Positions 13,101 to 61,558 of a DNA stretch of 64,000 bases are shown here, one piece after another. The notes under the pieces are model-generated. The model worked only from the letters and a program-made list of their open reading frames with translations. It made no database searches and was not told the origin of the DNA. The stretch is from a virus: the IMG/VR virus record IMGVR_UViG_3300025168_000054, positions 15,959-79,958 of that record. One strand, given 5' to 3'. A program made the position numbers and the translations under genes. How positions within the stretch are numbered: the stretch's first letter is position 1; each line of letters starts with the position of its first letter.

Positions 13101-16100
13101 GTTTTGCCGCGGAGTCACTGCTTGAAACTGAGATGGGGCGCGAGACGCTTGACATGCTCATCGCATCGGGGTCTCTCCCGATTCCTTATGAGCTGACCTC
13201 GCCTGGCCGCAGGCACCTCGCCGTAGTCGACATGGCTCGAGCCACAGGGACTGCCGTGGGCATGCTGGGGGGCCTTGTTGCCGCTGTTGGCGTGCCGGAT
13301 GCGACCGACTTCTTGCTTATCCCTAAAGTCATGAAGACAGGTCGACGTGCCTATCGTTTGATCAAGGACATTGACTTGTCGGTTGATGGGCTCGAGGCGC
13401 TCACAGAGACGAAGACATTCTCTCGGGCTGTGGGGTCGCGCTCAGAGATGTTCCTGCACGGAGAAGCTCGACGCACCACACTGGCCCAACTGGCAGCGAC
13501 GCTTGAGCAGACGTCGGCAAAGGACCTGCAGGGTGCTTCGAGCGACGAAATCGCGACTCTTCTTCAGTTGGTCGATGATATTCTCGACACTTCCCGTAAG
13601 CAGGATGCGACAGACGGGGTCTTCCGTAACGATCTGACAGCCAGCGTGAAGATCGAGGTGGACCTGGAAGCAGAGAGTGCGCTGAGACTTCGAGCAGAAA
13701 CTCAGACGCCCGCAGGGGAAGCCGCTCGGTACGCGTTGGACAAGGACCTCTCGAAGGACGTTCACGCCACTATCGTTGAACTCATCAAAGAGGCGTCGGC
13801 GTCAAAGGACCCTCGGCGAGTCGAGTTGGCCGAGGCACTGGGCGAGCGGCTGAAGGCTTCGCAGCTGCGCGAAGCCGTGAGCCTCTCGCCAGGCCAGACA
13901 GACGCGTTTTTGTCGGCCGCAGAAGAGGTGGTTGGTCCAAAGAAAGTCTTCGGATTCACTGAGCGTATCGAGATTCTCCGTGACGCACTCCTCCTCATCG
14001 ACCCTGCCTCCGATGGTATGGCGATTCGGAAGAAAGTGTTCAGTCGCCGGGTCACTGAAGATCGCCTTAGTCGCGTGGCCAACACGGACACTGCCGACCT
14101 GCCGGGCTTTGTCGATCCGACTCTGAGCAAGGGCTTGGACCGCTACGGGCCTGTGACCGAAGAGGCTCTTAAAAAGTCTCTAAGCACTGTGAGATTGGCT
14201 GACGCCAAGAAGGGTGAGATCCTCCAGGCTCGCACAAAGCTGCAGGGTTGGCACGATCGGTTCAAGGCCGCGGTAGCCGACAACAGCATTCTTGACCCTC
14301 AGGTTCGGAGCGTGTTGCTCGACGAGTTCAAGGCAGAGAAGCTCGGAGATTCAAACTACCGGGTCTTCAGCAACTCCGATCGAAGCCGACAGAGTAGCTA
14401 CTACCGAGGCGTCATAAAGGGCATCGAGGGTGTCGCAGGAGATGCGACCAACGCGGCGTTTGGTCAGAACATCCTGGCTCGGGGTCTTCAAGGCGTACTC
14501 GCTGCCGCTGATTCGCGCGGGGCCGCGTACAAGAGGTTCGCAGTCGCACTGGTCGACAAGAGGAAGCTCGAAGCGCTGGATTCCAGCATGGACGCCGAGA
14601 AGTTCCTTGCAGGCGGAGAGACCGCTCTGCGCATGCGGAGGTTCCGCTACGCGCTCCAGTCAGCCACGAAGGAGGGAGTGATGCAGATCATGCTCTCCAA
14701 TCCTGTGATGAGTCGGCTGATTCCAGAAGGCATTCGCGCGCAGTACGCTGTGTCCGCTTCGGCGAGGATGGCGAAGCGTCAGGAGATGCTGCGGCAGGGC
14801 AAGTCTCCGCTGGACCTCACCAACTTGCTGAAGCGAGAGGCTCTGACGAAGCTTTCACAGCGTCTGGCAGTGGCAACGACCAGCGGCGATCAGGCAATGG
14901 CCGCAAAGCTGACTGCCGACATTGACGAAGTCAAGTCTCCGCAGTTCTTTGCCAGGGTTTCCCAGTGGATGGACGATTCCATCACAGAGGTGAAGACCGC
15001 AGCCGCTGAAGGTCGAGAGCCGAATCTTCCCGGCATCGAGCTTCCTGTTGGGATCGACCCCGCCATCGTCAACCGTATGGACATGGATCCTAAGCCGCTG
15101 AGCGCTACCCGTAAGTTCTTCAGGGAGAGCTACTCGCCGGCGTTTGGTTTCGGTGCGGTGGAAGAAGTCCCCGCGGGTCCCTTGACCGCAGAGTTGCGCA
15201 CACGGCGTGCGCGACTTTCTACCTCGGAAAAGCTCGCCAACGAGGTCGTTCTTGACCACATGCTTCGCTACATGGCAGGCGTCGATCGAACCGACACCCG
15301 CGTCATCGCAGAGCGCAAGGTCACCGACTTCCTCGAGAAGCGTCTGACGGTTCGGTCAATCGGGTCGTATGACTTCGAGTCTCGTCGAGTTGAGCTGCGT
15401 ACGCAGCTTGATGACTTGTCTGAGCAGATTGCCCAGAGACGCTTCGGCCAGTCGGTCAACGACCTGGAACCACGAGCGCGCGTCCAGGTTCGCAGCGATG
15501 CGTTCAACGTCATCATTCCGTTGATGACTGACTGGGAAGCATCTTTGATCTTGGCACGCTCGTCAGAAGAGCTGAAAGAGATCCTCGCGAACGCACGCCT
15601 CATCGGTCCGCGGCTGCCTGGCGAGGAAGCCGGAGACGTCATTCTCTCGACCTTGTTTCAGGACCCGGAGTTTATGGCGCGCCTGCGTAAGACAGGCGGG
15701 GCTACGCGACGTCGCCGCAAGGCAAAGCCTGCCGCAAAGGCGGCACCAGAAACGGCGGAGACTACAGAAGCTCCCGCTCTGCCCGCTGCATCCGCCGTAG
15801 ACACGGCCGCAGCAACCGACCGCCCGGCTCGGCGCACCCGTCGGGCGGCAGTCACTATCGACAAAGAGGCAGCTCCGACTGGTCAGGTGTATGTGGCTAA
15901 GGTCGACGAGCTCGACGAGGGCGTACCTGACTCAGTGCTTGAGGCAGAGTCTGCCTTTGGTAACTCCGCGCTGCTGTGGAGCAGTCTCAGTGATCGTATG
16001 GGCGGCCTCCTCGAACAGAGTGAGGTACTGCGTGGTTCGCCTACCTTGGGGTCGGCTTCGTCTACCGTTGTCGGTCAGCGCGCAGTGGGCAGCATCGGCC

Positions 16101-19100
16101 GGCAAGTCCTCGGAGTCATGGTCGAAGGTCTGCAGGGCCTTAAAGCAGAGGATTCCTCTGACTTCTTCGTCAAGTTCGCGGAGGCGCTTAAGTCGACAAG
16201 TCGCTTCGACGAGCCCATTCGTTTGGCCGTGACTAACAACCCGGAGGTTGTGGTCACGTTGGCAGAGGTGTTCAGCAAGCAGGCTCGAGGCAACCTGACT
16301 CAGGCAGACGTCACTGCCGTCGAAAACCTGCTGCGTAAGGCGGGTGTACTTTCAAGCGAGTTGAGTGCGCAGGACCTGCTGAAGGTCAACGGCGAGGAAA
16401 CCAAGGCGGCACTGGCGGCAGATACGGTTGCTCGGGCCGATGAGTTCGTACCGTCTCCCGCAGCTACGAAGGCTACTCTGCCTGAGGAAGTTGCGCGGAG
16501 CTCTGCGCTCGAGGAGGCCGTCGAAAACATCGCCAAGGCTACGGGCTCCGATGAAATCCGCAGGCTGCTCACGGACTTGAAGGACTCTGACCACGGGCGA
16601 AACATCGAGGCCGTGCTTCGGGCTATCGACATGATCGGCCCCGAACGACTCAAGAACATCTCACTGGTCATTGAGCCGGCAGAGGGCCAGTCCGCGGCGA
16701 AGCGGATGTTCGACTTCACCAACGAGACCATCCGCGTCTACGACGACGCTCTCGAGTCCGGCGAGTTTACGCCTGAGGTGCTGTCGCAGTTGTGGCAGTC
16801 GCTGACTCGGTATGTGCCTGACGCTGAGGTCAAGGCCCTCAAGGACGAGTGGCTTAAGGAGCGCGACGCGTTCATGCGGGCGAACCCTGATCGCTTCGGT
16901 CGGGACATGACTCCGATTGGAGACTTTGTTCCAGACGAAATGACGCTCCTGTCCTTTGACCAATGGATTGCTAACGCTGCCCGCAACGTAGTTCTCGCGG
17001 AAATAAACCCAAAAATCACAAATAACCCGGTCCTTCAGGCTTTCGTCGACACGGTGTCTGCGCTTGTCGAGCAGTTCAAGCTGCGCGGCAAGAAGGTCGG
17101 GGCCATGGCCCTGGAGTTCTTGAACAAGGGCAGCCAGAAGTATCAGGAGATGGTGCGCGATGGCTCCGTGGACACGGCGATTCGCCGAGCGACGCCTGAG
17201 CAGTACTTCGGTGAGCAGCTCAAGTGGCAGGCGTTCCTCGACAACCCTGACGCGCGCAAGCCCTCAGTCAAGGCCGTAGGCGAGATGGAAGCCATCGACG
17301 AGTTGATCGATGGTGCTGCTGAGACCACGGTTAAAACTGTTGAGACATTCCTTGCGGAACGCTTCGGTAAGCGCGCGATTCTTACCGAAGAAGGTTTTTC
17401 CCTTCTCAAGGCAGAGGCTGTCAAGGACGATGTCTCTCGCGTACTGTTTTCGGGGGTCGCCGCGCGGCTGCAAGAGCTGGGTGTGTCGGCCCTCGATGCA
17501 GAGGGCAAGCCGCTGTCTCCCTTCCAGATGACGGAGCTGTTCAAGGAAGTGCGCCGCGGTTTGGTCGAAGAAGCCGCGGACGCGGCTAAGCAGGAAGGTG
17601 GCGAAAACTTCAAGAAGGTACAGCGGCTGGGCGAGTTGGAAAGCGAACTCGCCAAGTTGCGCGCCGCGGGTGAGACCGAAACTCCTCGCGTGATCAAGTT
17701 GAGCGAAGACATCAACGAGCTTGACGCTGACCTTCGGGCGACGGCGGAAAGTGCCGGCGAATCGACGTCTCCGTTCCAGCGTATGCTTGAAACGAAAACT
17801 CAGTCAGAGCGAAAGGTGCTCGCACAGAGCATCCTCGACAGTGTCGTCGCTGTGATCGCAAAGATTGATGAGTCTCCTGGGCCGATGACTCTGGATGAAC
17901 TGCTCGAGGGAGTTGAAGATCAGAGTGTCATCAACGAGGTCCGGCACTTGCTTGGCGTCGCCGGCAAGCGCGGTGACCTCTTGTCGCAAGTTCGAGATGA
18001 CGGGCGCCTGCTCCTGGCAAGAGCCCCTGGCCGCGTAGTGCTTCCCGAAGAAGACCTTTACGTCCAGACGCTTCGGGCGGAGGCTGAAGGTCGCGCGTAC
18101 GAAGCCGACGAACTCGCCGATGAGGTTGACAAGATCCTCGGTCTGAGGCCTGACATTGCTCGGGACGAAGCTCGTAAGCTGGCTTCGGGCTACCTCGAAG
18201 AGCTTCGACAGGCCGCAGCCACTGCTCGCCGTCAACGGCTTGAGCGTGGGGCTATCGACGCAAGTATGCTGGACGAGCTTTTGCTGAACGAGGCATCGTC
18301 TCTGGCAGCTGACGCCGCACGCACGGGTCTGCGGGCCGACCTCGATGTACAGATTGATGAGATCGTCGCCGCCGTCCCCGACGCAGGGACGGTGCCGTTC
18401 AACACGACGAGAAAGGTCTCTGACGACTTCGACATCGTTTCTTTCGAGTCAAACCCTGGGGTCGAGCAGGCCGCGTTTGCCTTGTCCAACGCGAGCAGCC
18501 TCAGAAAGAGCCCGCCGAAGAGCATCAAGAAGGGCGCGAACGAATCGGCCGAAGCGTTTGCTGCGCGGAGTAAGCAGCTCATGGCGACAAACCGCTCTGC
18601 GGCTATCACGCTGGTCATCGACATGTTCGAGGGTCTGCGCCCTTACATCGCGCTTCCGGCCGAGATTGTAGTCAAGCGCAACAAGGTCGATAAGACCATC
18701 TATCTAAAGGACGTCCTGCCTGGACAGGACTTTAGCAAGCTGCGGGTTTTGGATACCAAGGCGTTCTTGAAGAAGTACACCGAGCTGATCGAGGAAGCTC
18801 TCAAGGAGCAGGGGCTACTCGAAGAGGTCAAGTCACTCTCGTCGGCGATGCAGAAGAGCGAGTTCGACGACGCCGTCGCGCGTGCTCGTAAGCAGAAGTC
18901 CGTAGAGGCCGAGCCTGTGGTGGAGCCTGCGGCAGTTGAGCCTGCAGCCGCTCGGACGGCTACTGACGACCGGTTTGTGTTGAAAGCCCGTGAGATGTTT
19001 GACGACGGCAAGACTCCTCGTGCCGCGGAGAGTGTGCGAGAGGCCATCGAAAAGAACGCGGGATCTGGCGCCGCGAAGGCGTTCGGCGATGAGTACAAGT

Positions 19101-22100
19101 CCCTCAGAGACGCCGCTGTTCAAGCCCGTGTTCGTCAGGACGCCGCTGAGGCCACCACCGGTGCCGCTGAGCCTAAGGCGACTCCTTCTCCCACGGTTGC
19201 TTCGCCAACGACTACGCGGTCTTTGCCCAAGGCAGGAGAAAAGCACACGCCGCCGACGCCAGCAGAGGCTCGCGCAGAGACTGCTGCCGCGCCGAGGAAC
19301 GAACGCGGTGTCTCACTGGGCAACCCGGCACCTTCCAGAGATGACCTACCTAAGATCGAGACGGTCGTTAAGCCCTACCGCGAGATGGGCAAGCAGTCTC
19401 CTGAGACGTTGGCTGAGCACGCGAGTGCTCGTGGAATCGACCTCGCCGATCACTCGACGCCTGAAAGTCTCGCGAACGCTGTGGGTCAGGCAGACGTAAA
19501 GTCTGCGCGCGTGGCGCAGGCTGTGTCGGGTGACGCGCCTCCGGCCGCGGCCAAGGCGGCACCGCCTGAGGCCTTTGCCGCAGCGGCAGACATCACTGCC
19601 GCAGAGGCGAAGACCGTCAATGCGATAGACGCCATGGTCGATGCGCTCGCACCGGAGAACGCAGACAAGGTCGCCAAGCGTGTTGCACGTCTCCAGAAGC
19701 TTATCGACAAGTCGGAAGAGATCGAGGCGCTTTCAGCCAAGCAGGTGGTCGACTACGTCTTTGACGACCTGGATGTTGGCGCGCGAGAGACTCTGGCGAA
19801 CTCCGGGGCAATCGACGACATCGTCAAAGACCTGACGAGGATTTTCAACCAAAACGTCGCGGACGTAAAGCGAGAGTCTCGGCGGCTTCGTCGAACCTTT
19901 GAGAGTCTGCAGAAGCTCGCCAAGAAGCTGGAAGGCAAGGATCGTGAGCGGGCTCTCCGTGCTGCTGCCCGAGCGGAACGGCAAGCAACATCCATGGAGG
20001 AAGCTCTTCGCGAGCTCTTGAGGTCTGACCGGCTGGACGAGTTCGCCGATCTTCTCGAGACTGAGCGAGCAGCCGGCAAGGTTCGGCGGAAGGCAGAAAA
20101 GCAGGCCCGAGAAGAGGCCATCATCTCGTTCATCAGCCGTGGGGCACCTCCCCGCCCTCCAGGTACGCCTAAGACCCCGCGCAATCGCGGAGTAGATAAG
20201 GTCCCTAAGAACGTCAAGGGGATGGTGTATTTCCTCGACGACTCACAGGCGATTATCTACGCGTTCAAGTCGGCAGATGCTGAGACAGGTCTCCACGAGA
20301 TGGCGCACGTTTTGCGGCGCAACTTGCGGGACGCAGACCTCCAGGTTTCTTTGGGCTGGGTCAACTCTCAGCTGGAAGCGCGGGGCATGGAGAAGGTGCG
20401 CCTGGCTTACGGTGTTGACAGCCGGACGGGCAACTTCATTGGTCGAGGTGACTCTGTTCACTACGCCGAAGAGCTTTTTGCTGAAGGCTTTGAGCAGTAC
20501 ATGCGCGAGGGCGTGGCCCCGACGAAGATGCTCGAGAACGTCTTCAAGATCATGAAGGAGCTTCTGCACAACATCTTCGTCTCGGCCAAGCGACAGCCGG
20601 AGAAGATTGAAATCAGTCCTGAGATGTACGCGGTGTTTGACCGCGTCTTCGGGGCAAAGCAGACGTTCACGATGGACGACATGCCCGACGCGATGATGTT
20701 CCTCAACGTGCAGGACGACCTCGGTCGATCTGTCGTGGGCCTGGGTGGCCGGCTTGAGACTGACCTCATCCTTGAAGACACTGTGACAGGTCGTTTCCGC
20801 CAGCTTGAGATGAGCCTCGACGACTATCGCCGTCGCATGGGCAAAAGCGGCGAGGCGGGTATCGTCGGCAAGGTCGCGTCGAAGCTGCCTACTCCTAAGG
20901 CGGCTGTGGGTGGTCTCGGCTTGGGTTCACGAACCAGCCAGTACCTTGACCCTGTCAGTAGCCGCGTGCTGTCTGCCGAAGACCGCATGCTTCTCAACAG
21001 GTTCCGCCGCGGTGAGATCGAAAGGTCTGATCTGCCCAACCGACTTCTGCCTGAGATCGAGAAGGGCTTGCGTGTGACTGGTGAGGCGGCGGTGCTCGTT
21101 GGCTCGCTCACACTGAAGGCTGCGCGCCTTATGTACGGCGACGATGCTTCTCGCGTCATCCGCACGTACAACCCGGCTCAAAGAGTCCACATGAAGGCGG
21201 GAGCGAGGGAGGGTGAGGAGTTCTCTAACGGCGCGTCAGTCTTGATCAACGACATCTCTCGACGCATGGGTGCCTCTGCCGAACGCGCGCTGAACGACAT
21301 CATCAGCTACTTCTCAGGTCAGTCGGCGCAGCTGTTGACTGGGTCGGAGAGAGGTAAGAGACTCAATGCTACGAATGTAGACATCTTCGAGCACGTCTCG
21401 AGAATGTTCCACGACATGCTCTGGAGGATGGACCCAGAAGCGCGGGTTGCCTTGATACAAGCGGCAGAAAATCGTTTGAGCAAGCCGCTGCACGCGACAA
21501 CTCAGGATGACATCCTTCCGCTGTCAGGTTTGTGGAACGGCTACGTCGTCCGCAACCGAGCAACCCCAGAGAAGTCGGCGCTGTCATTTTCCGGGGAAGG
21601 AATCTTGCTGAGCAATGACTACATCGACGTAGTTAAGCCTGGACTTGCGAAGGGTGGCTCTATCGAGATCGATAGTTTTTTGCAGGACACTCTCGGAGAC
21701 CTCTATGTCGCAGTGACCGGGCAGCCCCTCAGTAAAGGTACGAAGGTTCCTCCCACAGCCTTGGATATGGCTGCGCTGCTCGTGCTTCACTCCGGCGGCT
21801 CGATGCTGAAGGCTTCCGATGGAAGCGCGGTTCACCTTGACCAGGTCTTGAAGGCCGCCGGCGTGAGCCGCGGAGAGGCTTTGATCAAGGGCGTTACCGC
21901 CGAAGTCAACGGCTCGACCGTCAAGGTCCCCGGACTCATGACGACGTCAGTCGCCGTTGAGCGTCGCTTGCCAGTGCTCATGTCTCTGGGGCATGCCGGG
22001 TTTGCGTCAGGCATGCTCGACGACGCGGCGAAGTGGGGCTTTGGTCTTACCGGACGAGAGTACCGAGCGTTCATGCGCTACGTCACAGGTCAGCAAGGGG

Positions 22101-24709
22101 CCATGTCTTTGAGCGATATCGAAATGGCGAAGAGCGTCATTAGCCGCTTCGGTATTTCGGCAGAGTTTGTCACCAACTCACGTCGTCATGGGCAGTATTA
22201 CCTCCCCAAGCAGGCTCGAGACGCGCTGCGAGACCAGATGTCGCAGGCAGCACGGCAGTTTGATTACGGCGAGAAGGGTGGGAAGAGCTCCGTCGCAAGA
22301 GACGCCTTCGGCATCTACAACTCGTTGCTGTACTCAACGATGGTGTTTGGGGCAGTTGTAGTCAAGCCGTTCTACCGGCTGGCGTCGTTGATCGACTTGG
22401 GTCTCGGTGCTCTGGGTATGGGGGGCGCTCGCGCAGCCACAGCTGCGGTCACACGAGCAGGCGTAAGTACCTTGCTGGCGTTTGCTTACGAAGGGTTCCC
22501 GCTACTGTCTGCGGAACGCGCCGCAGAAGCTGTGGGGCTTGCCGGAGACGCCGGCCGCGCGGTTGTTCGACGTGTTCGAGGTGACGTAGATTCCGCGAAA
22601 ACTGTGTTGGATTTCAAGCAGCAGATTCGCGATGTAGCAGCCGAGTCTGGAGACAACCTTGCTCGTATGATTACCGAGACTTCAGCCAGCGCGAAGTACC
22701 GCCCGGAAGTGCGCCCCATCATGGAAGCGCGAGCAGACATGATCTTCGTCATCAATGGTCGTCCTTACCGGGCTTCTGACCTTCGGCGCATCTTCGTTCG
22801 GTCTGGCCTGTACAACAACATGTTCAAGTCCATCAAGGCCACGTACATGGCGGAGGGCGGTTCGCTCACTGAAGTCATGGACCGGGTGAAGCGCAGCGTG
22901 AAGGAGAAGTACGGAGATGACGCGGCTAACGTGAAGATGCTCGACAGCTTCCTCGAAGAAACGACAGACACGAAAAATCCGTTCAACATCATGGGCGGTA
23001 TCCGCGGAGCCGGTGACATGGCTCTTCGTCACGGCCTTGAGTCTGCCGACGCGTGGGCAGACCTTGAGCGCACAGGTCTGGCGGTCACATTCATGGAGTT
23101 GGGCCACTCACCGCAGACGGCGGCCCGTATGGTCGTTGAGGCGGTTTACGACTACCGAGGCTCTATGACCTCGGCTGATCGCAGCATGTTCAACAAGGTG
23201 ACGCGACCGTTCTTTGCTTTCACCAAGAACGCGATTCACCATCTCACAAACATGATGAGCTCTCCTCTCGGGCGGTTTTACGCTCGTTCGATGGCGAAGC
23301 TGCCGTTCCTTTCAGCTGACGCTGCGACTGCGGTGCTGTACGAGTTCCTGGTCGGACCTTACGGAATCAACACCTCCGCGATGAACTCAAGCGAGGTCAA
23401 CGCGTACTACGACATGAGAAACTTCCTCGAGTACGGTCTGGGCGAGCAGGTTGACCGAAATACTCTGCAGCAGTACCGAGAGATTCTGCCGGATGAGGCA
23501 AAGGACATTAGCGACCAAGAGTTGATGGACCACGACTTCGGCGGATGGACCATCCGCAACGGGTACAACGGCTACGACAACGTGCCGGAAGACGCTCGAG
23601 TGTCTGTGCGTGCTTTGATCGCCAGCAGGTCGAAGCTGTACGCAAAGGGCCGGTACCTGTACGTTGCGAAGGTTCTACAGGACGAAGAACTTCGGGAGGA
23701 GTTCGTCAAGCTTGGTGGAGCTATGGCGGTTCAAGATGAGCCCAGCCGTCGCGGGCAAGCTTCCTATATGTACAACCGCTATCCGACGATTCAGGTTCCT
23801 TTTCCGGTGCTGAACGCCAGCGCGCAAGAGGCGATGCGGCTTGGCCTCAGTGATTCCGTTTACTGGATGCTGCCGGATAACTTCGTCCACTCAGGCATCG
23901 CCGAAGCCAGCGCCATGATGGCTACAGCGTTGGTTGTTCTCGATGAATCTTTGAATGCAATCCCAGGGGGAAAGCCATTCTTCCCCGACGTCGCGGCAAC
24001 GCGTGCCCAGCGTGCGGCAGCGCCTTTGATAGACATACGCGGGTACGGCAGTCCGATTGCTGCCGACATCATCAAGGGCGGCGCCGCGTTGTTCGGTAAA
24101 GGCAACTTGTTCGTCGAAGTCGACCCGCTCATCGCACGCGTGCTGCAGGGGTCAATGATTCCTGTCGCTAACGCCGACGACATCGACGAAGATGACCTGG
24201 GTATCTTGCTTCAGCTCGCCCAGTCTGACCCGGAGCTTTACAACCAGGCGATCAAAGTCTTCAGCCAGATGATGGGCGGCAGCGTGGGCCGAGAAATACA
24301 GTTCCCTGCCTTTGCAGACGAAGTTCGAGCTGCGCGCATGATTGTCAAGGACGGTAGGCGAGAAGTCGTGTTTGCCAATCGCGGCGGTGTCTTTGACCGT
24401 GAGTTCCTCGAAAAGGGCGCTAAAGACTCAAGCGAGAAAGCCGTCCGAAAGAAGCCGTTTCTGGTTGGTAAGTCCGCGGTGCTGTTTAAGATCACGCCGC
24501 TGGGTCAGCTCAATCAGGCGCTCTTGCAGTACCGTAAGACTCCTCAGGAAGGTCAGCTCGAAGCACAGAAGGAGCTTCGGTCGGAGATTATCCGCTTCAT
24601 CACAGCCCAGGGCCGACAGGTCGGTATGCGTACTTCCGGGGCTGACGAAGAGCGCGTGACAGAAACAATCGAGCGGGCTGCGAACAAGGTCTTCGAAGAG
24701 TACAAGTGA
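10124..24709 (+). CDS. Giant internal virion / large polyvalent protein (muramidase-like and zincin metallopeptidase-like domains)
   Basis: 4861 aa; AVTKAES...GAFGEFQVTG...LAKEYYG; ADAETGLHEMAH...EELFAEGFEQY; C-terminal VYDY...PFFAF motif. Confidence 0.8.
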   Translation: MSYLTSLEKRASFPLRPAEQKEEVKVDEVAAPAAPAFTSTVPGTGIRPISDLLPSEGKTPEYSFGDVPTPKENPFDIAFGSREKVAALYSEIVDTTARKRYEAGQLAEKYNFDDQEEEGFFVGLAKEAGETLMGREILPREPSDEKVVLKRTDVDSYMVESPVSVSGRPSPVTGLSQLVLGASAIDPESRPARELKKQGRTAKKIPNAEDIRVNVTNERLRAAFISQAKDKESGAQSYSAYVQRIADNLAKEGKDATFRDAQLFIAGNVIARLPKPAGQGDPGIVVAQRDAVNLVSQYTDPSFTRGLAQTLPMAPLRLGVAGSEKLGDRIDPSRVFDPYVEEDTEMKRSDPLGARARGPMTASEAERAQFLEQRMFFPVDFEYDEDKSLKTSTTAAQTMNDLIVDGSLILGGAEGNFDDMYGERSVTEVYSSKVISGESDQNRLIALAAKAGIPVDKTYAVTKAESTGNPASFAFNLHLGQHNPKDPSNPRNRTAEQEQRLRQLMASEGLKVNFESRAAQNYYGKNARRALDLAAAINPVAAVQGGAFGEFQVTGKYGDALGYVKETFPEVETDEQAAGVFLNMFKQSPGVVGDDMFVRWFQRNPDAQKAANDGDISGLAKEYYGSLSDPEEVGISAAEKARREKQVETRDGWVGRATNASEAYLGGMIDSARKATRPEAQSAETSTDDPPTSLSQQGLLENESVFTSEESREDISQVEEALQLRAVEVETGVSTVMTMFGDMAQAPTPGSSAFIAAVAPIKDAKENDAQLYTVVKDNRDAPMGTGYRNVANFLFERKVNTTLGERSLSDLSAEETKRLKAEARQEAFAVVTSAQTENLWRTSFYTSFDYLLGEEADSVFAAMAPRIEVMGRTKDGFVFRQEGDVLAAAAALDAPAVLGQSFNIGVIGNYLFPAIEAAYTEYEQGNRGAASLAFAVTGETVAAVAGSFGAYIPYSNDIGVEFLNEVHRAGVQGVAERQNFVEVGLSSGADVFGFAAESLLETEMGRETLDMLIASGSLPIPYELTSPGRRHLAVVDMARATGTAVGMLGGLVAAVGVPDATDFLLIPKVMKTGRRAYRLIKDIDLSVDGLEALTETKTFSRAVGSRSEMFLHGEARRTTLAQLAATLEQTSAKDLQGASSDEIATLLQLVDDILDTSRKQDATDGVFRNDLTASVKIEVDLEAESALRLRAETQTPAGEAARYALDKDLSKDVHATIVELIKEASASKDPRRVELAEALGERLKASQLREAVSLSPGQTDAFLSAAEEVVGPKKVFGFTERIEILRDALLLIDPASDGMAIRKKVFSRRVTEDRLSRVANTDTADLPGFVDPTLSKGLDRYGPVTEEALKKSLSTVRLADAKKGEILQARTKLQGWHDRFKAAVADNSILDPQVRSVLLDEFKAEKLGDSNYRVFSNSDRSRQSSYYRGVIKGIEGVAGDATNAAFGQNILARGLQGVLAAADSRGAAYKRFAVALVDKRKLEALDSSMDAEKFLAGGETALRMRRFRYALQSATKEGVMQIMLSNPVMSRLIPEGIRAQYAVSASARMAKRQEMLRQGKSPLDLTNLLKREALTKLSQRLAVATTSGDQAMAAKLTADIDEVKSPQFFARVSQWMDDSITEVKTAAAEGREPNLPGIELPVGIDPAIVNRMDMDPKPLSATRKFFRESYSPAFGFGAVEEVPAGPLTAELRTRRARLSTSEKLANEVVLDHMLRYMAGVDRTDTRVIAERKVTDFLEKRLTVRSIGSYDFESRRVELRTQLDDLSEQIAQRRFGQSVNDLEPRARVQVRSDAFNVIIPLMTDWEASLILARSSEELKEILANARLIGPRLPGEEAGDVILSTLFQDPEFMARLRKTGGATRRRRKAKPAAKAAPETAETTEAPALPAASAVDTAAATDRPARRTRRAAVTIDKEAAPTGQVYVAKVDELDEGVPDSVLEAESAFGNSALLWSSLSDRMGGLLEQSEVLRGSPTLGSASSTVVGQRAVGSIGRQVLGVMVEGLQGLKAEDSSDFFVKFAEALKSTSRFDEPIRLAVTNNPEVVVTLAEVFSKQARGNLTQADVTAVENLLRKAGVLSSELSAQDLLKVNGEETKAALAADTVARADEFVPSPAATKATLPEEVARSSALEEAVENIAKATGSDEIRRLLTDLKDSDHGRNIEAVLRAIDMIGPERLKNISLVIEPAEGQSAAKRMFDFTNETIRVYDDALESGEFTPEVLSQLWQSLTRYVPDAEVKALKDEWLKERDAFMRANPDRFGRDMTPIGDFVPDEMTLLSFDQWIANAARNVVLAEINPKITNNPVLQAFVDTVSALVEQFKLRGKKVGAMALEFLNKGSQKYQEMVRDGSVDTAIRRATPEQYFGEQLKWQAFLDNPDARKPSVKAVGEMEAIDELIDGAAETTVKTVETFLAERFGKRAILTEEGFSLLKAEAVKDDVSRVLFSGVAARLQELGVSALDAEGKPLSPFQMTELFKEVRRGLVEEAADAAKQEGGENFKKVQRLGELESELAKLRAAGETETPRVIKLSEDINELDADLRATAESAGESTSPFQRMLETKTQSERKVLAQSILDSVVAVIAKIDESPGPMTLDELLEGVEDQSVINEVRHLLGVAGKRGDLLSQVRDDGRLLLARAPGRVVLPEEDLYVQTLRAEAEGRAYEADELADEVDKILGLRPDIARDEARKLASGYLEELRQAAATARRQRLERGAIDASMLDELLLNEASSLAADAARTGLRADLDVQIDEIVAAVPDAGTVPFNTTRKVSDDFDIVSFESNPGVEQAAFALSNASSLRKSPPKSIKKGANESAEAFAARSKQLMATNRSAAITLVIDMFEGLRPYIALPAEIVVKRNKVDKTIYLKDVLPGQDFSKLRVLDTKAFLKKYTELIEEALKEQGLLEEVKSLSSAMQKSEFDDAVARARKQKSVEAEPVVEPAAVEPAAARTATDDRFVLKAREMFDDGKTPRAAESVREAIEKNAGSGAAKAFGDEYKSLRDAAVQARVRQDAAEATTGAAEPKATPSPTVASPTTTRSLPKAGEKHTPPTPAEARAETAAAPRNERGVSLGNPAPSRDDLPKIETVVKPYREMGKQSPETLAEHASARGIDLADHSTPESLANAVGQADVKSARVAQAVSGDAPPAAAKAAPPEAFAAAADITAAEAKTVNAIDAMVDALAPENADKVAKRVARLQKLIDKSEEIEALSAKQVVDYVFDDLDVGARETLANSGAIDDIVKDLTRIFNQNVADVKRESRRLRRTFESLQKLAKKLEGKDRERALRAAARAERQATSMEEALRELLRSDRLDEFADLLETERAAGKVRRKAEKQAREEAIISFISRGAPPRPPGTPKTPRNRGVDKVPKNVKGMVYFLDDSQAIIYAFKSADAETGLHEMAHVLRRNLRDADLQVSLGWVNSQLEARGMEKVRLAYGVDSRTGNFIGRGDSVHYAEELFAEGFEQYMREGVAPTKMLENVFKIMKELLHNIFVSAKRQPEKIEISPEMYAVFDRVFGAKQTFTMDDMPDAMMFLNVQDDLGRSVVGLGGRLETDLILEDTVTGRFRQLEMSLDDYRRRMGKSGEAGIVGKVASKLPTPKAAVGGLGLGSRTSQYLDPVSSRVLSAEDRMLLNRFRRGEIERSDLPNRLLPEIEKGLRVTGEAAVLVGSLTLKAARLMYGDDASRVIRTYNPAQRVHMKAGAREGEEFSNGASVLINDISRRMGASAERALNDIISYFSGQSAQLLTGSERGKRLNATNVDIFEHVSRMFHDMLWRMDPEARVALIQAAENRLSKPLHATTQDDILPLSGLWNGYVVRNRATPEKSALSFSGEGILLSNDYIDVVKPGLAKGGSIEIDSFLQDTLGDLYVAVTGQPLSKGTKVPPTALDMAALLVLHSGGSMLKASDGSAVHLDQVLKAAGVSRGEALIKGVTAEVNGSTVKVPGLMTTSVAVERRLPVLMSLGHAGFASGMLDDAAKWGFGLTGREYRAFMRYVTGQQGAMSLSDIEMAKSVISRFGISAEFVTNSRRHGQYYLPKQARDALRDQMSQAARQFDYGEKGGKSSVARDAFGIYNSLLYSTMVFGAVVVKPFYRLASLIDLGLGALGMGGARAATAAVTRAGVSTLLAFAYEGFPLLSAERAAEAVGLAGDAGRAVVRRVRGDVDSAKTVLDFKQQIRDVAAESGDNLARMITETSASAKYRPEVRPIMEARADMIFVINGRPYRASDLRRIFVRSGLYNNMFKSIKATYMAEGGSLTEVMDRVKRSVKEKYGDDAANVKMLDSFLEETTDTKNPFNIMGGIRGAGDMALRHGLESADAWADLERTGLAVTFMELGHSPQTAARMVVEAVYDYRGSMTSADRSMFNKVTRPFFAFTKNAIHHLTNMMSSPLGRFYARSMAKLPFLSADAATAVLYEFLVGPYGINTSAMNSSEVNAYYDMRNFLEYGLGEQVDRNTLQQYREILPDEAKDISDQELMDHDFGGWTIRNGYNGYDNVPEDARVSVRALIASRSKLYAKGRYLYVAKVLQDEELREEFVKLGGAMAVQDEPSRRGQASYMYNRYPTIQVPFPVLNASAQEAMRLGLSDSVYWMLPDNFVHSGIAEASAMMATALVVLDESLNAIPGGKPFFPDVAATRAQRAAAPLIDIRGYGSPIAADIIKGGAALFGKGNLFVEVDPLIARVLQGSMIPVANADDIDEDDLGILLQLAQSDPELYNQAIKVFSQMMGGSVGREIQFPAFADEVRAARMIVKDGRREVVFANRGGVFDREFLEKGAKDSSEKAVRKKPFLVGKSAVLFKITPLGQLNQALLQYRKTPQEGQLEAQKELRSEIIRFITAQGRQVGMRTSGADEERVTETIERAANKVFEEYK

Positions 24710-34462: not shown

Positions 34463-34662
34463 TAGCCGTCCACGCGGGTCATACCGCCCAAGAACCGCTC
34501 GACACTCTTGCACCAGGTTCGATGCTTCTCGTCGATGTAGACGACCAGCACGGGGTACCGAACCGGATCATCGGCGTGCTCGTTCACGAGCATCCGCACC
34601 CGGTAGTAGTTGCCATTGCGATGCTGCCAGCGGGTTCCTGGCAGAACGTCTGTTTGCGCCAT
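34462..34662 (-). CDS. DUF1653-like protein
   Basis: WQHRNGNYYRV...VLVVY...W....RF. Confidence 0.65.
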   Translation of the reverse strand: MAQTDVLPGTRWQHRNGNYYRVRMLVNEHADDPVRYPVLVVYIDEKHRTWCKSVERFLGGMTRVDG

Positions 34663-34677
34663 GTCTCACTCCTGCAG

Positions 34678-34709
34678 GAAAGCCCCCGCCGTCATCGACG
34701 ACGGGGGCC
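34678..34709 (-). terminator. Putative intrinsic terminator after the SSB-like gene
   Basis: GCCCCCGTCGTC-GAT-GACGGCGGGGGC hairpin followed by a short TTT tract. Confidence 0.55.
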
Positions 34710-34726
34710 AGGTTGATCGCTCTCAA

Positions 34727-52697: not shown

Positions 52698-52701
52698 GGC
52701 A

Positions 52702-53145
52702 TCAGCCGTACTTGCTGAGGGCGTGGTCGCTCCAGAACTGGGCCGCTTCGATGGCCTCGTGGGGCTTCATGCCCGAGTCCCACCACTCTCGGGGAGCGAC
52801 AGTGGACCCGATGCTCCCGTAGGCGGTGAACACCTTGGGGTCATCGCCGGCGACGCCGATGACCACCATGTGGTCTGCCGGTCGGCACGGGCGGTTGATG
52901 AGGCGGCTCGGGCCGGGGCGGTTGCCCCGCTTCACGTACTCCACCTCTTCCTCGGGGACGGACTCGTCACCACAGTACGGACCGTACAGAGCCGACTGGA
53001 GCGTGCCGGCCAGCTCCTCGAGCGGGACGGCATCGACGAAGAATCCCTCCCGCACGCTCATCAGGATGTCGATGAGCTTGTGGTGTCTCTCGTCCAGCCC
53101 GTGGTCAGCGTGGAAGATTGGCGTGCCCTTGGGGGTAGCGGTCAT
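52702..53145 (-). CDS. Conserved phage hypothetical protein
   Basis: LYGP..GD...RGNR.G.SRL...TAYG...APRE.WD...FW..HAL motif. Confidence 0.75.
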   Translation of the reverse strand: MTATPKGTPIFHADHGLDERHHKLIDILMSVREGFFVDAVPLEELAGTLQSALYGPYCGDESVPEEEVEYVKRGNRPGPSRLINRPCRPADHMVVIGVAGDDPKVFTAYGSIGSTVAPREWWDSGMKPHEAIEAAQFWSDHALSKYG

Positions 53146-53295
53146 GGTTCTCTCCGATGCAGGCTGAGTGAACGCACGACGAGCAGACCTGCGGACATGC
53201 AGGAGCCTGCTGCGCTCGCCGTGCGGGATGGTTGCTCAAGCGCATGAGGCTGCTCGACCCTGTCGGGGAGCGGCGTCACACCTTGGCGCGATTGC

Positions 53296-53429
53296 TGGGA
53301 GCGGAGGGCATCGAACCCTCTACCGTCAAGGTCTCGTGTCGAGGTGATCAGCCTCTCCACGGCAGCGTCCTCAGGTGATCAGCCCGTGAACATCTGCGCG
53401 ACCAACGGCCCTTACCAACCGGCGCTCCC
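53296..53429 (-). ncRNA. tRNA-like RNA with a long hairpin replacing the anticodon arm
   Basis: Acceptor stem GGGAGCG/CGCTCCC + A; T-arm GAGGG-TTCGATG-CCCTC; GG-containing D-like loop; 134 nt. Confidence 0.7.
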
Positions 53430-53537
53430 TCAGGATGAACCTGAGGCCCAATCAAGGCTCTCCTCTTGCGAGGTTGTAGGCGTGGAATCAGACGCCTCGT
53501 TACTTGTATACCGCTGCCTTGACTCAGCGGTGAGTGG

Positions 53538-53762
53538 TCACGGGATGAGGTAGGAAACCTCAACCTCGTACAACCCGCTCCACTCTCCGAACGGGTCGAT
53601 CACTGCATCGCAGTGCTCGACCTCCGCCAGGAACACCTGGCCCTCATGGGTCACCGCGACGCGGAGACCCACTTCGATTGCTTTTCCGACGATGAAGATT
53701 GCGTCTTCATCGTCGGAGAAGTTCGCCTTACTCAAGGCGAACTGTCGCAGGGCGGGGGTCAT
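53538..53762 (-). CDS. Hypothetical protein
   Basis: RBS GGAGAGAGAC-ATG. Confidence 0.6.
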   Translation of the reverse strand: MTPALRQFALSKANFSDDEDAIFIVGKAIEVGLRVAVTHEGQVFLAEVEHCDAVIDPFGEWSGLYEVEVSYLIP

Positions 53763-53775
53763 GTCTCTCTCCAAT

Positions 53776-53822
53776 GCCGGAAGGAAGGAACCCACACACA
53801 TCTCCGGCGGGGTGCATGTGGG
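53776..53822 (-). promoter_or_regulatory. 5'-UTR H-type pseudoknot motif, copy 1
   Basis: S1 CCCACAUGCA/UGUGUGUGGG, S2 GCCGGAG/UUCCGGC, 3 nt before GGAG. Confidence 0.6.
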
Positions 53823-53868
53823 CGTAGGTTGTGCAGGTTGGTGATCCGGTCCTGCGCCGGGGTGGGGG

Positions 53869-54183
53869 TCAGCAGGAGCGGCGCAGGCCGCGGCATCCCA
53901 CCGGACGACCGCTCTCGTCGCGGACGAGGTCGCCTGGGGAGAGAACGTCGTCTCGGGGAGCCGCGCTGGCGACCATCCCCGAGACGACGAAAACGGTGCC
54001 CTCGACGGGGGCGGGGAGGCCGGTGACCTCCCCGCAGGCGGTGGTCACGGTCGGGATGCCACCCACAGGGGCGGCCTCCTCGCTGACGGTCGCCACTCGG
54101 GCGACCTCTCCCGAGGGCGGGATGGTGACCACACCGCCGGGGGCGTGGATGTTGAGGGCGTGAGGAGTGAGGTTGATGAACAT
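53869..54183 (-). CDS. Conserved phage protein (NLTPH family)
   Basis: INLTPH...IPPSG.VARV...VVS..V...R.D.LSP...VRD..GR.VGC. Confidence 0.8.
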   Translation of the reverse strand: MFINLTPHALNIHAPGGVVTIPPSGEVARVATVSEEAAPVGGIPTVTTACGEVTGLPAPVEGTVFVVSGMVASAAPRDDVLSPGDLVRDESGRPVGCRGLRRSC

Positions 54184-54197
54184 GGTGAAGCTCCAAG

Positions 54198-54246
54198 GCC
54201 GGAGAGGAAGGAATGAACCGCAGACGCCTCCGGCGTACGTCTGCGG
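54198..54246 (-). promoter_or_regulatory. 5'-UTR H-type pseudoknot motif, copy 2
   Basis: S1 CCGCAGACG/CGUCUGCGG, S2 GCCGGAG/CUCCGGC, 3 nt before GGAG. Confidence 0.6.
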
Positions 54247-54299
54247 ACAGTAAGGCACACCGACATGTCATGCCGGTGTGAGGTATGCCGGAAAGTGTG

Positions 54300-54880
54300 T
54301 GACACTTCCGGCGGGGGGATGAACCTCCGGTGACGTGCTGTGCTCCTTATGTCACAGCCACGTCTTTGCTCCGAAGGCTCGAAATAAAACTGTCACAGAG
54401 GGTCACACGGAATAGGCCAGGAAGAACCTGGACTATCGTTTCGGGCAAACATTGTCCGATTACACGAGACGTAAGGAAGAACCTCACCTCTCGCGGGCGG
54501 TGACACAACTGAGACATTCGAGACAGTACCTGCCCATAGAGAGAGGTACTTAGGGGGGGTATGGAGGCTCCTCCCCCCTTGGAAGGGGGTAAACCTCACA
54601 CGCCACGAGACCCTCTAATAATCAGTATACATTAGATCATATTGTAATCTATCAGGTTGAACCTTGATAAAAACGAATGACCCTCTGTGACGGAAACCGT
54701 TGTCCGTCTGCGCTGACGTCGAGAACCCGCATGGGCAGGGCCTCGGCGTCTGCGGAGACGTGCGGCAGAAGTGCTGATCTGCTGATTGTAGATTCAACAC
54801 TCCTCCCGCTACGATTTGTAGCAATCACCCGCACAGTTCGTCGTCGTCCTCCCACGGCTTGGGAGCGGGAGGAAACTTGA
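54300..54880. other. Non-coding, lower-GC region; candidate replication origin or early promoter region
   Basis: No credible ORF; AT-rich core near 54615-54680; recurrent GTCAC/GTGAC; inverted repeats. Confidence 0.45.
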
Positions 54881-54892
54881 GGTTGTCCCATG

Positions 54893-55300
54893 TCATCGGG
54901 CACCCCCGACGACGAGCCCGGACAGGTCCGCCGCTCGCCGATTACCGGCGGCGTGGTTGGCCGCCGCGCCGGTCAGGACCGACGTGGTCTGGCCACACCA
55001 GCCCGCCGGGCCGCGGCCGTTGACGCCGCCACCGCGGCCCTTCTTGCGGGACCAGAGGCGGGAGCGTCCGCCCTCCCGCTTCTTCTTGCGGTCGCCTCCG
55101 GCCCACTGGTAGCCGTGGCCGGTGCCGATCACGGACGGTCCACCGGCGCGGGTCTCGTCGCTGGTGTCGTTGCGGGTGTCCACGAGCGTGGACCCCCGGC
55201 GGGTGTCGCGGAGGACCTTGCGGTCCTCGCGGGTGGTGTAGCCCTTGCGCGGAATCCGCGCGGAGCGCACCTCGGGCATGATGAAGTCGGGACGGCCCAT
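54893..55300 (-). CDS. Arg/Gly/Lys-rich basic protein
   Basis: RBS GGAGG; very high GC3. Confidence 0.65.
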   Translation of the reverse strand: MGRPDFIMPEVRSARIPRKGYTTREDRKVLRDTRRGSTLVDTRNDTSDETRAGGPSVIGTGHGYQWAGGDRKKKREGGRSRLWSRKKGRGGGVNGRGPAGWCGQTTSVLTGAAANHAAGNRRAADLSGLVVGGAR

Positions 55301-55429
55301 GGCGGTCCTCCGGCGTTGTAGGTGGGTCACACTCAGTCACGCCCGTGCATCGGACGCGTCCACCGCGCACCACGTGGAGGTGGTGACCATTGCGCGGCAT
55401 GGGAGCCCCGTGCGGGGCCCCCGTCGGTC

Positions 55430-56563
55430 TCACTTCCAGTCGCTGGCGGTCGTGTGCTGACCGCGGCGGAAGTTCACGTTGTCGGCCGTTGCGGCCTGCG
55501 ACTCGAGCCCCTGAGCGGTCAGGGCGCCCCGTGCGGATCCTCCCTTCTCGGTTGCTTCGAAGAGTGCCGCCTCCGCGGAGATCTTGCCCCCGACGGCGTC
55601 GGTGATGGACCGCAGCACGCGGCGTGCCATATCACTATCTACCTCAACCTTGCGGACGGCGTAGTCCGCGCCGCTGACAGCGGGGCACACGAGGGTGGGG
55701 CGGCTGCCCTCCCTCATGTCTCCGAGCTTGGTATCCTTCACGATGCCGGCGGCGGCGATGATCTCGGCGCAATCCGCGAGGGAGAGGAACTCCCCCACGG
55801 CCCAACCGCTGGCGGTTGGGGTCGCGGCGTCAACGCCCTTGCGGGAGATCTTGAGCTTCTTGCCCGTGAGGGTCCAGGTTGCGCAAGCCTTGGAGAAGGC
55901 GCCCTTCTCGATCCACGGCCCCGCTTTCGCGGGACCCGGCCGGTAGACCGTGCAGCGCTGATCGTCAATGACGACGCGACGGTCAGTCTTGTCGGCGTTG
56001 TCGTCCGCCATGAGGCGGATGGTCTCATCGTAGGAGTCCGTTTCCAGGTAGACATTCTGGAGCGGGTGAATCACACTTCGGATCTTGCCGATCGGTGCGG
56101 GTGCGGCATCGGGGCTGGCAGGCATGGGGCTGGCGATGCCCTCGGCGTAGCCGAGGATCGCGCCGAGCATCCGCTTGACGTCATTCCCGGAAGGGAAGAC
56201 GGGCACGGAAGGCTTGCCACTATCGGGCTTGGGCTGGGACCACGCGCCGGGGCGCTTCGCAGCGTCGATGTCGCGCCACGCCGCACGGGCGGAGCGGAAC
56301 ATATCGGCCACGGCGTCCGGGCTATCGACCATGGAGGGCAAAGCCCTGCCGGCCGTATGCGCGGTCATATCGTCGGCGACCAGGGCGACGACGCCGGCCT
56401 TGATGAAGGTGGTGTCATCGGTGATCGCCGACCACACGAGGGGCGCCGTCACGGCGTCCGCCGACACAGCCGCGCCGATGGCGGGGCTGGACGGGAGGAC
56501 GAGCGTCTCGGTGGTCTCGGTGGTCTCGGTTGCGGTCTCAGGGTTGATCGTTGCGTTGATCAT
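55430..56563 (-). CDS. Hypothetical protein, first gene of the early region
   Basis: RBS GGAG before MINATINPE; ETT repeat. Confidence 0.7.
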   Translation of the reverse strand: MINATINPETATETTETTETLVLPSSPAIGAAVSADAVTAPLVWSAITDDTTFIKAGVVALVADDMTAHTAGRALPSMVDSPDAVADMFRSARAAWRDIDAAKRPGAWSQPKPDSGKPSVPVFPSGNDVKRMLGAILGYAEGIASPMPASPDAAPAPIGKIRSVIHPLQNVYLETDSYDETIRLMADDNADKTDRRVVIDDQRCTVYRPGPAKAGPWIEKGAFSKACATWTLTGKKLKISRKGVDAATPTASGWAVGEFLSLADCAEIIAAAGIVKDTKLGDMREGSRPTLVCPAVSGADYAVRKVEVDSDMARRVLRSITDAVGGKISAEAALFEATEKGGSARGALTAQGLESQAATADNVNFRRGQHTTASDWK

Positions 56564-60583: not shown

Positions 60584-61558
60584 TCAGTCTCCCAGCAGGT
60601 AAGCCCAGATTAGCGGCGCAACAATGGTGGCGTCTGACTCGATCATAAACTTCGGGGTGTCGACATCGAGTTTGCCCCAAGTGATTTTCTCGTTGGGTGG
60701 CGCTCCTGAGTATCCGCCGTAGCTGGTCACAGCGTCACTGATCTGGCAAAAGTATCCCCAGAAGGGCGTCGATGTCTCTTTGAGGTCTTGAATCAATGCG
60801 GGCACAGCGCAGATGGCGAAGTCTCCTGCAATCCCGCCACCAATCTGAAAGAAACCAACGCTCGGAGTACCGTTGAGATCTTTGGTCTGCTGCTGGTACC
60901 ACTCTATCAAGCGAACCATCTGCTCTGTGCCTGAGACCACAGACGTATGACTCTGTAGGTTTCCTTTGAGTGCAGCGACAGCGAACATGTTGCCGCAGGT
61001 GCTGTCCTCCCACCCCGGCGTAAACACAGGGACACCGCAGCGTGACGCAGCGAGCAGCCAGCTGTCTTCAGCCTGTTGGAAGTGACGCTGCACTTCGGGT
61101 AGTGCCAGCACACTCTGAAGATGTTCCGCGGGAAGGGCTGAGCGTCCCTCTTGGTCGAATGCTTGCCAGCGTGCCAGAAGTTTTTCTGCCAAGCGGCGCA
61201 TCACTGTCTCGGGAATGCACGTGTCTGTCACGCGGTTCATGCCCTGCTCGTAAAAAGCACGGTCTTGTTCAGCCGACAGTGCTCTCCAGTTTTCGATCTC
61301 AACGTACGTGTCTCCCTCCAAGAGAGCGTAGGCATCTTCCTCTAAGTTCGCTCCCGTGCAGCAGATTCCATGCACTAAACCAGCGTCGAGCGCGCGCGAT
61401 AAGATTCGACCAATCCGAGCAGTGGACATCGCTCCGGCCAATGTCACAAACATCTTTCCGCCCGCTGTGATGTGGGCTTCGTAGGCTCGTGCAGCTGCTC
61501 GAACTTGTCGAGCGTTGTAGTGTAGATAGTGTTGGTCGACAAAGTCGCGTACTCTCAT
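60584..61558 (-). CDS. Deoxyhypusine synthase-like protein (bacterial type, SpeY/homospermidine-synthesis candidate)
   Basis: TLAGAMST, TGANLEED, NRVTD, PGWEDS, IGGG, YSGAPPNEKITWGK with the catalytic Lys, ESDATI. Confidence 0.92.
   Translation of the reverse strand: MRVRDFVDQHYLHYNARQVRAAARAYEAHITAGGKMFVTLAGAMSTARIGRILSRALDAGLVHGICCTGANLEEDAYALLEGDTYVEIENWRALSAEQDRAFYEQGMNRVTDTCIPETVMRRLAEKLLARWQAFDQEGRSALPAEHLQSVLALPEVQRHFQQAEDSWLLAASRCGVPVFTPGWEDSTCGNMFAVAALKGNLQSHTSVVSGTEQMVRLIEWYQQQTKDLNGTPSVGFFQIGGGIAGDFAICAVPALIQDLKETSTPFWGYFCQISDAVTSYGGYSGAPPNEKITWGKLDVDTPKFMIESDATIVAPLIWAYLLGD

Follow-up and report, generated by a model that had tools for sequence, protein, structure and literature searches.

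In the repZ leader of the plasmid ColIb-P9, the loop of a hairpin pairs with the bases immediately 5' of the Shine-Dalgarno (SD) site and the start site is kept open (Asano & Mizobuchi, as reviewed in PMC4705826). At the E. coli rpsO (S15) operator, a pseudoknot and a double hairpin are in equilibrium at the ribosome binding site (RBS) (PMC3985624). In the mycobacteriophages of Cluster K, a 13-bp start-associated sequence termed SAS, GGGATAGGAGCCC, occurs in 11–19 copies, and the related ESAS has arms of 17 bp and a spacer of 4–13 bp. Their function is unknown, and they are phage-specific repeats fused to the RBS of some non-structural genes, with variably spaced inverted repeats just upstream that are conserved along with the family of the downstream gene (PMC3203893). 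The PeSLs of T4-type phages are mobile regulatory cassettes made of an early promoter and a terminator stem-loop (PMC2839356, PMC4122927).

Two copies of an RNA element in an uncultured marine phage resemble the first of these systems in design. The DNA analysed here, called the window, is a stretch of 64,000 nucleotides that covers bases 15959-79958 of an IMG/VR virus record, which is 79,958 bp long and has direct terminal repeats, and all positions below are those of the window. As in the rep leaders of IncI-alpha, IncB and IncL-M plasmids, the loop of the first stem (S1) is complementary to bases 5' of the SD. In the phage element the second stem (S2) ends 3 nt before the GGAG. As in the activator pseudoknot of the IncI-alpha/IncB type, the 3' arm of the knot otherwise masks the SD, although the masking hairpin is weak here. 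The pairing in ColIb-P9 repZ is GGCG/CGCC (4 bp plus extensions), whereas the phage element has a 7-bp GCCGGAG/YUCCGGC stem, and the sequences are unrelated. In contrast to repZ, no leader-peptide ORF ends at an inhibitory structure. The stop upstream of copy 1, at 53869, is 47 nt 5' of S1, and copy 2 stands at the end of a non-coding leader of about 700 nt. With regard to the competing antisense RNA of repZ, a consensus search showed no plus-strand promoter-like site facing the motif. Translation begins at a weak GUG in repZ and at a strong AUG here. The setting also differs, being a replication-control region in repZ and a phage early-gene cassette with two tandem copies here.

The likeness to rpsO is that two exclusive folds of roughly equal energy, according to rough estimates in the present case, are available at the RBS. 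However, in rpsO both the SD and the AUG are part of the knot and the 30S subunit is trapped by S15, whereas the SD of the phage element is outside the knot, 3 nt further on. The two share no sequence similarity, and no protein candidate was identified for the phage element. The likeness to SAS/ESAS is in form only: inverted repeats with a variable spacer stand upstream of an RBS, and copy 1 is kept with its 74-aa gene in a sister phage (G001). On the other hand, the phage element has 7-bp arms, a spacer of 19–23 nt that itself pairs with upstream sequence, 2 copies and a different sequence. Like the PeSLs, it is a stem-loop module at borders where ORFans are inserted, deleted or replaced between close relatives. 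Unlike them, it shows no sigma-70 promoter-like or terminator-like consensus and is fused to the RBS. Judged by sequence, the element is a member of none of these types (repZ, rpsO, SAS/ESAS and PeSL), because the sequences are unrelated, a leader peptide is absent and there is no promoter or terminator consensus.

Genomic setting

The GC content of the window is about 60%, and DNA near-identical to the phage was found in marine and seawater metagenomes from many studies. The phage encodes a family A DNA polymerase fused to a UDG, a DUF927 primase-helicase, an SNF2 helicase and a PD-(D/E)XK nuclease. A run of minus-strand genes extends from about 25 kb to 64 kb of the window. A gene of the deoxyhypusine-synthase family (60584-61558, minus strand; Pfam DS, E 7e-39) is found in the right arm of the phage. 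The structural arm ends with a 4861-aa ORF on the plus strand (10124-24709). N4-like phages possess a giant virion RNA polymerase gene, which the position of this ORF recalls; the resemblance is positional only. In a check for an N4-type context (hairpin promoter, virion RNA polymerase), neither the 4861-aa ORF nor a 414-aa ORF gave a match in PHROG or PDB.

A stretch of about 700 nt (54890-54184) has lower GC and no coding signal, and the motif copies and two small ORFan genes are located at or after its 3' end. Inside it there is a sigma-70-like hexamer pair (54670-54641), as a consensus match only. This non-coding region also contains 40 nt (54757-54796, minus strand) starting with TGAATCTACAATCAGCAG, which are 100% identical in both phages, and a related word, GAATCTAC(G/A)AT, is repeated just upstream of them. 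The 40-nt stretch may be a phage-specific promoter or operator. The segment 54822-57303 has no counterpart in G001. Further upstream (54893-55433, minus strand), the strong third-position GC signal runs on for about 500 nt in the same frame past the stop of the 414-aa ORF at 55430. This signal corresponds to a 145-aa ORF at 55330-54893, and could be explained by stop-codon read-through, a split gene or a sequencing error. Downstream of both small genes, a tRNA-shaped RNA (53296-53429, minus strand) has two identical 7-nt loops, CUGAUCA. With the closing CCUC/CCUG these read GAUCACCUC, which we take to resemble the 3' end of 16S rRNA (anti-SD region).

Architecture of the two copies

The features of the locus are listed below in the order of the minus-strand transcript.

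54312-54287, minus strand: third element, a plain hairpin in which GCCGGAA/UUCCGGC arms pair directly (11 bp, CAC loop)
54280-54256, minus strand: fourth hairpin, CACACCG-11 nt-CGGUGUG
54253-53824, minus strand: swapped cassette (copy 2, 104-aa gene and 3' spacer), with blastn borders adjoining the 5' edges of the motif copies
54246-54191, minus strand: copy 2, whole (direct reading, pattern matches, covariance model 71 bits)
54246-54238 and 54226-54218, minus strand: S1 of copy 2, CCGCAGACG / CGTCTGCGG, 9 bp; as RNA CCGCAGACG / CGUCUGCGG
54237-54235, minus strand: L1 of copy 2, UAC
54234-54228 and 54204-54198, minus strand: S2 of copy 2, GCCGGAG / CUCCGGC, 7 bp
54227, minus strand: L2 of copy 2, G
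54217-54205, minus strand: L3 of copy 2, UUCAUUCCUUCCU, 13 nt, pyrimidine-rich
54197-54195, minus strand: spacer CUU, followed by SD GGAG (54194-54191), 7 nt and AUG (54183)
54183-53869, minus strand: 104-aa ORFan gene (PHROG 30542/21731, no assigned function), served by copy 2
53822-53769, minus strand: copy 1, whole (direct reading, pattern matches, covariance model 91 bits)
53822-53813 and 53800-53791, minus strand: S1 of copy 1, CCCACATGCA / TGTGTGTGGG, 10 bp with 2 G-U; as RNA CCCACAUGCA / UGUGUGUGGG
53812-53809, minus strand: L1 of copy 1, CCCC
53808-53802 and 53782-53776, minus strand: S2 of copy 1, GCCGGAG / UUCCGGC, 7 bp with 1 G-U
53801, minus strand: L2 of copy 1, A
53790-53783, minus strand: L3 of copy 1, TTCCTTCC, as RNA UUCCUUCC
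53775-53773, minus strand: spacer AUU, followed by SD GGAG (53772-53769), 6 nt and AUG (53762)
53762-53538, minus strand: 74-aa ORFan gene, served by copy 1

An earlier note on this DNA had described two pseudoknot-capable elements 3 nt before the SD of consecutive genes, and both direct reading of the sequence and pattern matches bear this out. The spacing is common to the two copies: the 3' arm of S2, 3 nt, GGAG, 6–7 nt and ATG. S2 and L3 are kept in sequence and S1 is kept in pairing, while L1 (UAC vs CCCC) and L2 (G vs A) differ. Under the classical rules for H-type pseudoknots, an L1 of 3–4 nt over a 7-bp S2 and an L3 of 8–13 nt over a 9–10-bp S1 are sterically adequate. The geometry of both copies would thus allow an H-type pseudoknot. 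Three features were absent from the earlier description, namely the competing hairpin that sequesters the SD, the third GCCGGAA/UUCCGGC hairpin at 54312-54287 and the cassette-swap borders at the motif.

The link of the element to two translation starts was also upheld. For the ATG at 54183, support comes from distant homologues of the 104-aa protein, which without exception begin with MFINLTPH at the equivalent ATG. The ATG at 53762 is supported by homologues of 73–74 aa, and its GGAG-AGAGAC-ATG cassette is reused at other genes of the phage. The homologues P0002 and P0003 are 87–88% identical. The 104-aa and 74-aa proteins are unrelated to each other, and Pfam and PHROG assign no function to the proteins around them. 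In the protein database the 74-aa gene is represented by an 85-aa gene call from GTG 53795, for which the GGAG of the knot loop would serve as RBS (53795-53808, minus strand). Either this call is likely an error or the motif contains a minor alternative start. In both copies the motif shares the reading frame of the downstream ATG (GSFLP). A coding reading of the motif was nevertheless rejected: GCCGGAG is in different frames in the two copies, the homologues of both proteins use the short start, and GGAG-AGAGAC-ATG recurs.

Two competing folds

In the nested minimum-energy fold of both copies, S1 is accompanied by a small hairpin, YUCCG/UGGAG, which masks the SD. It is weak (–4.6 and –4.9 kcal/mol) and arises automatically because S2 contains GGAG/CUCC. 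Since the 3' arm of S2 is used in this hairpin, the knot and the SD-masking hairpin are mutually exclusive. In effect, the 5' arm of S2 is an SD mimic and its 3' arm with L3 is an anti-SD mimic. The energy of the knot was estimated roughly from ViennaRNA stacking energies with a Dirks-Pierce-type penalty. The values obtained in this rough way were –25.7 kcal/mol for copy 2 and –22.4 kcal/mol for copy 1, against –23.2 and –22.9 kcal/mol for the nested folds. It is therefore plausible that the knot is energetically competitive, and a two-state equilibrium is plausible as well. Folding is about equally good on the antisense and sense strands, and strand specificity is therefore supported by position only.

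Chance expectation and covariation

Inverted repeats of the form GCCGGAR-N8-25-YTCCGGC occur three times in the window against 0.06 expected, and there are no others in the 80-kb genome. At any one site that has an S2 arm, the probability of an S1-type stem of 9 bp or more with the right L1/L2 geometry is about 1.2e-3, and such a stem is present at both sites. Generic knot-compatible arrangements of 9+7 bp were counted 8 times in the genome and about 3 times in shuffles. Since such arrangements are not rare, the signal lies in one architecture repeated at one distance from two starts. The element is real and not a product of chance, as the excess of inverted repeats and the shared architecture at two starts show.

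For covariation, copy 2, copy 1 and the copy 1 of the sister phage were aligned, and the last of these three sequences is near-identical to copy 1. Standard pairs were found in all 48 pair cells (16 pairs in 3 copies), while controls with slid partners gave 30–54%. Within S1 there are 5 invariant pairs, 3 compensatory double changes and 1 one-sided change. Within S2, 6 pairs are invariant and 1 changes between G-C and G-U, and no compensatory change was found in S2 among the three aligned copies. Pairing is thus kept through sequence change in S1, as the earlier note had proposed, and S2 contributes no such change. That note had also called the S1 sequences different; they still pair, but the stems are related, with 5 of the 9 aligned pairs identical and 4 different (3 of them compensatory). 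By this alignment the copies are homologous sequences, S1 has drifted under a pairing constraint, and S2 is the less well supported of the two stems. The knot itself, as opposed to an S1 hairpin with conserved sequence, is plausible.

Since S2 has no compensatory change, it is explained equally well by common descent or by a protein that recognises a conserved sequence. Known types of translational repressor include T4 RegA, gp32, gp43 and S15. The element could be considered an operator at which a phage or host RNA-binding protein would read the S2 helix together with the pyrimidine L3 next to the SD and shut off two early genes jointly. Conservation of S2 and L3 in sequence and of S1 in pairing is the pattern expected of such a protein, and the S2 helix sequence is present a third time in the leader. 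There are also precedents: T4 gene 32 uses a 5' pseudoknot (PMC535899, PMC3014915), and the knot/double-hairpin equilibrium of rpsO is fixed by a protein (PMC3985624). However, Pfam and PHROG gave no candidate RNA-binding protein among the neighbours, and there would be two targets only. We consider a protein operator of this kind quite improbable.

Neighbouring hairpins

The third element has the arms of S2 in a plain hairpin, and the seventh pair of S2 is A-U in it, G-U in copy 1 and G-C in copy 2. Together with the fourth hairpin it forms a 62-nt block (54256-54317) in which the two phages differ by 2 substitutions, against about 69% identity in the leader around it. In both phages the first RBS of the operon follows directly after this block. 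The block could serve as a promoter, for processing or for protein binding.

These neighbours bear on the possibility that no functional knot exists. S1 would then be an ordinary intercistronic hairpin for RNA stability, processing or weak termination, and the S2 complementarity would be a relic of a simple hairpin ancestor. The third element, which pairs the same arms directly, fits this explanation. A gene start elsewhere in the window (34712-34660, minus strand) fits it too, having a 12-bp GC-rich hairpin with a 3-nt GAU loop, then UUUCC and GGAG-UGAGAC-AUG, with no S2 knot arm. So do the lack of compensatory changes in S2 and the fact that the copies align as homologues, sharing 5 of 9 S1 pairs. 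Against it, the 5' arm of S2 stays in the S1 loop in both copies, with an L2 of 0–1 nt, despite the divergence of S1. An intrinsic terminator was rejected for both copies, as neither fits the consensus, with a loop of 11–12 nt and no T-run. S1 also travels with the downstream rather than the upstream gene, as described below. A plain hairpin is considered unlikely on balance, while deserving serious attention. A consensus search found no promoter-like or terminator-like site at either copy.

Cassette exchange between phages

Comparison of the two phage genomes by blastn revealed a mosaic. A block of 98.2% identity (52699-53823) ends at the base before S1 of copy 1, and the next homologous block starts at 54254, 7 nt before S1 of copy 2. 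In G001, the intervening 53824-54253 is replaced by 305 bp with a different small gene, a plain RBS and no motif. Logan contigs of the marine run X6, aligned at 80% likeness, give a third upstream context that also breaks at 53823. The joints in these contigs are no more than indicative; one repeats 53760-53823 (exactly S1 through ATG) and another jumps from 54206 to 53867. Whatever lies upstream in the three contexts (own genome, G001 and X6), S1 is therefore kept with the gene downstream, and the break is at 53823 in all of them. This argues against S1 being the terminator of the upstream gene, and it indicates that the unit is motif, SD and gene. In these alignments, the unit behaves as a swapped cassette whose boundaries are marked by the motif.

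The same borders raise the possibility of a linker for recombination at the DNA level, in which the repeated 5' module would offer short homology for insertion, deletion or exchange of ORFans and have no RNA function. It is consistent with the bracketing of 53824-54253 by both copies and its replacement in G001, and with the marine contigs that break at 53823, repeat 53760-53823 or skip from 54206 to 53867. Other repeated RBS cassettes, GGAGAGAGAC-ATG, exist in the genome, and PeSLs provide a precedent (PMC2839356). However, identical runs between the copies are just about 7–18 nt, and the S1 arms have diverged by compensatory changes, which homology for recombination does not need. The module also lacks the promoter-plus-terminator composition of PeSLs. 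A role as linker without RNA function is a slim prospect, and a linker role as such is compatible with the reading preferred below and not exclusive of it.

Distribution

No catalogued RNA family was matched in Rfam, either at the gathering score over the whole window or at E up to 10 over 53400-55000, which agrees with the earlier description of the motif as new. At E up to 10 over 53400-55000, none of preQ1-I/II/III, SAM-II/V, fluoride, guanidine-III, pistol, twister, hammerhead and hatchet appeared. Among the matches listed in scans of IMG/VR, JGI metagenomes and GTDB, G001 (IMGVR_UViG_3300006735_000002 = Ga0098038_1000012, 81,570 bp) was the sole relative with the motif. Copy 1 is present in it and copy 2 is absent. 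Its copy 1 differs from that of the own phage by 2 substitutions, both unpaired (L2 and L3), and the next 300 nt downstream are identical.

In IMG/VR, the strict pattern found G001 alone. The loose pattern gave more than 116 matches, all due to chance save G001, and none of the chance matches had S1 in the right geometry. Scans of IMG/VR anchored on the 74-aa, 104-aa and 340-aa proteins returned only G001 or distant low-GC phages without the motif, and a JGI metagenome scan with the 74-aa alignment returned the G001 contig only. A pattern scan of GTDB genomes gave at least 120 matches; among the matches listed, all were due to chance and none had the right geometry. The covariance model suggested in the earlier note was built from the three copies (model R1) and run over both phage genomes. 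It yielded no further copy, the best additional score (18 bits) being the plain hairpin and RBS at 34660-34712. An RBS-adjacent knot scan of both genomes, which recovered copy 2 and missed copy 1 because of its loop-length limit, found no further element and one chance-like match on the opposite strand of G001. A widespread motif class thus found no support in the IMG/VR, JGI metagenome and GTDB scans, whose listed matches included just one near-identical sister copy. The element is uncatalogued. On this evidence it is restricted to a single lineage of marine phages and has two to three copies, so that very few sequences are available for comparison.

Ribozymes are often located between phage genes, and a self-cleaving ribozyme or a small pseudoknot riboswitch could be imagined at this place. 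A compact H-type fold beside the SD is also seen in preQ1, SAM-II/V and guanidine-III. However, an Rfam search up to E 10 gave no family, the loops L1 and L2 are not the same in the two copies, the genes downstream are ORFans unrelated to each other, and one lineage only carries the element. Unlike pseudoknot riboswitches, the element has no conserved unpaired pocket nucleotides and no coherent regulated gene set. The riboswitch option of the earlier note is therefore unlikely, since L1 and L2 are not conserved, the ORFan genes are unrelated and no pseudoknot riboswitch model scores. Taken together, riboswitch and ribozyme are highly improbable.

Proposed role of the element

We favour the reading that the element is a cis-acting RNA module of the translation-initiation region in a mobile small-gene cassette, and that it sets the openness of the RBS or lets a trans factor switch it. 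Its probability is put at about 0.45. In the sense (minus-strand) mRNA, the GC-rich S1 hairpin would display the SD mimic GCCGGAG in its loop. The loop would pair with YUCCGGC, an anti-SD-like sequence ending 3 nt short of the real SD, and an H-type pseudoknot with a single-stranded SD would result. Without this loop pairing, YUCC(G) would pair with the real SD (CUCCG/UGGAG) and the double hairpin would mask it. RBS openness would then be set by the module itself or switched by a trans factor, and the compact fold 5' of the cistron may also protect the message. We infer that the knot forms in vivo, that its effect is activation rather than repression, and that RNA stability may be affected. 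The module most likely tunes the translation of cassettes that are swapped between phages.

A broader version of the proposal is that the element is a recurrent, uncatalogued phage device. It would be a portable leader with a knot between loop and SD flank, switched by a phage protein or RNA, and serving also as a joint for the exchange of ORFan early genes. This version is speculative and rather unlikely. If it is true, expression control and cassette mobility would be joined in one element of about 60 nt. The wider importance of the element hinges on whether similar leaders in other phages share the mechanism. Should the knot form and govern ribosome access, the element would be a phage case of the plasmid-type activator pseudoknot logic, with an SD mimic and an anti-SD mimic carried along with the gene in one portable unit. 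It would then also supply a compact, transferable part for translation control and help to explain how newly acquired ORFans are expressed immediately in a new genome.
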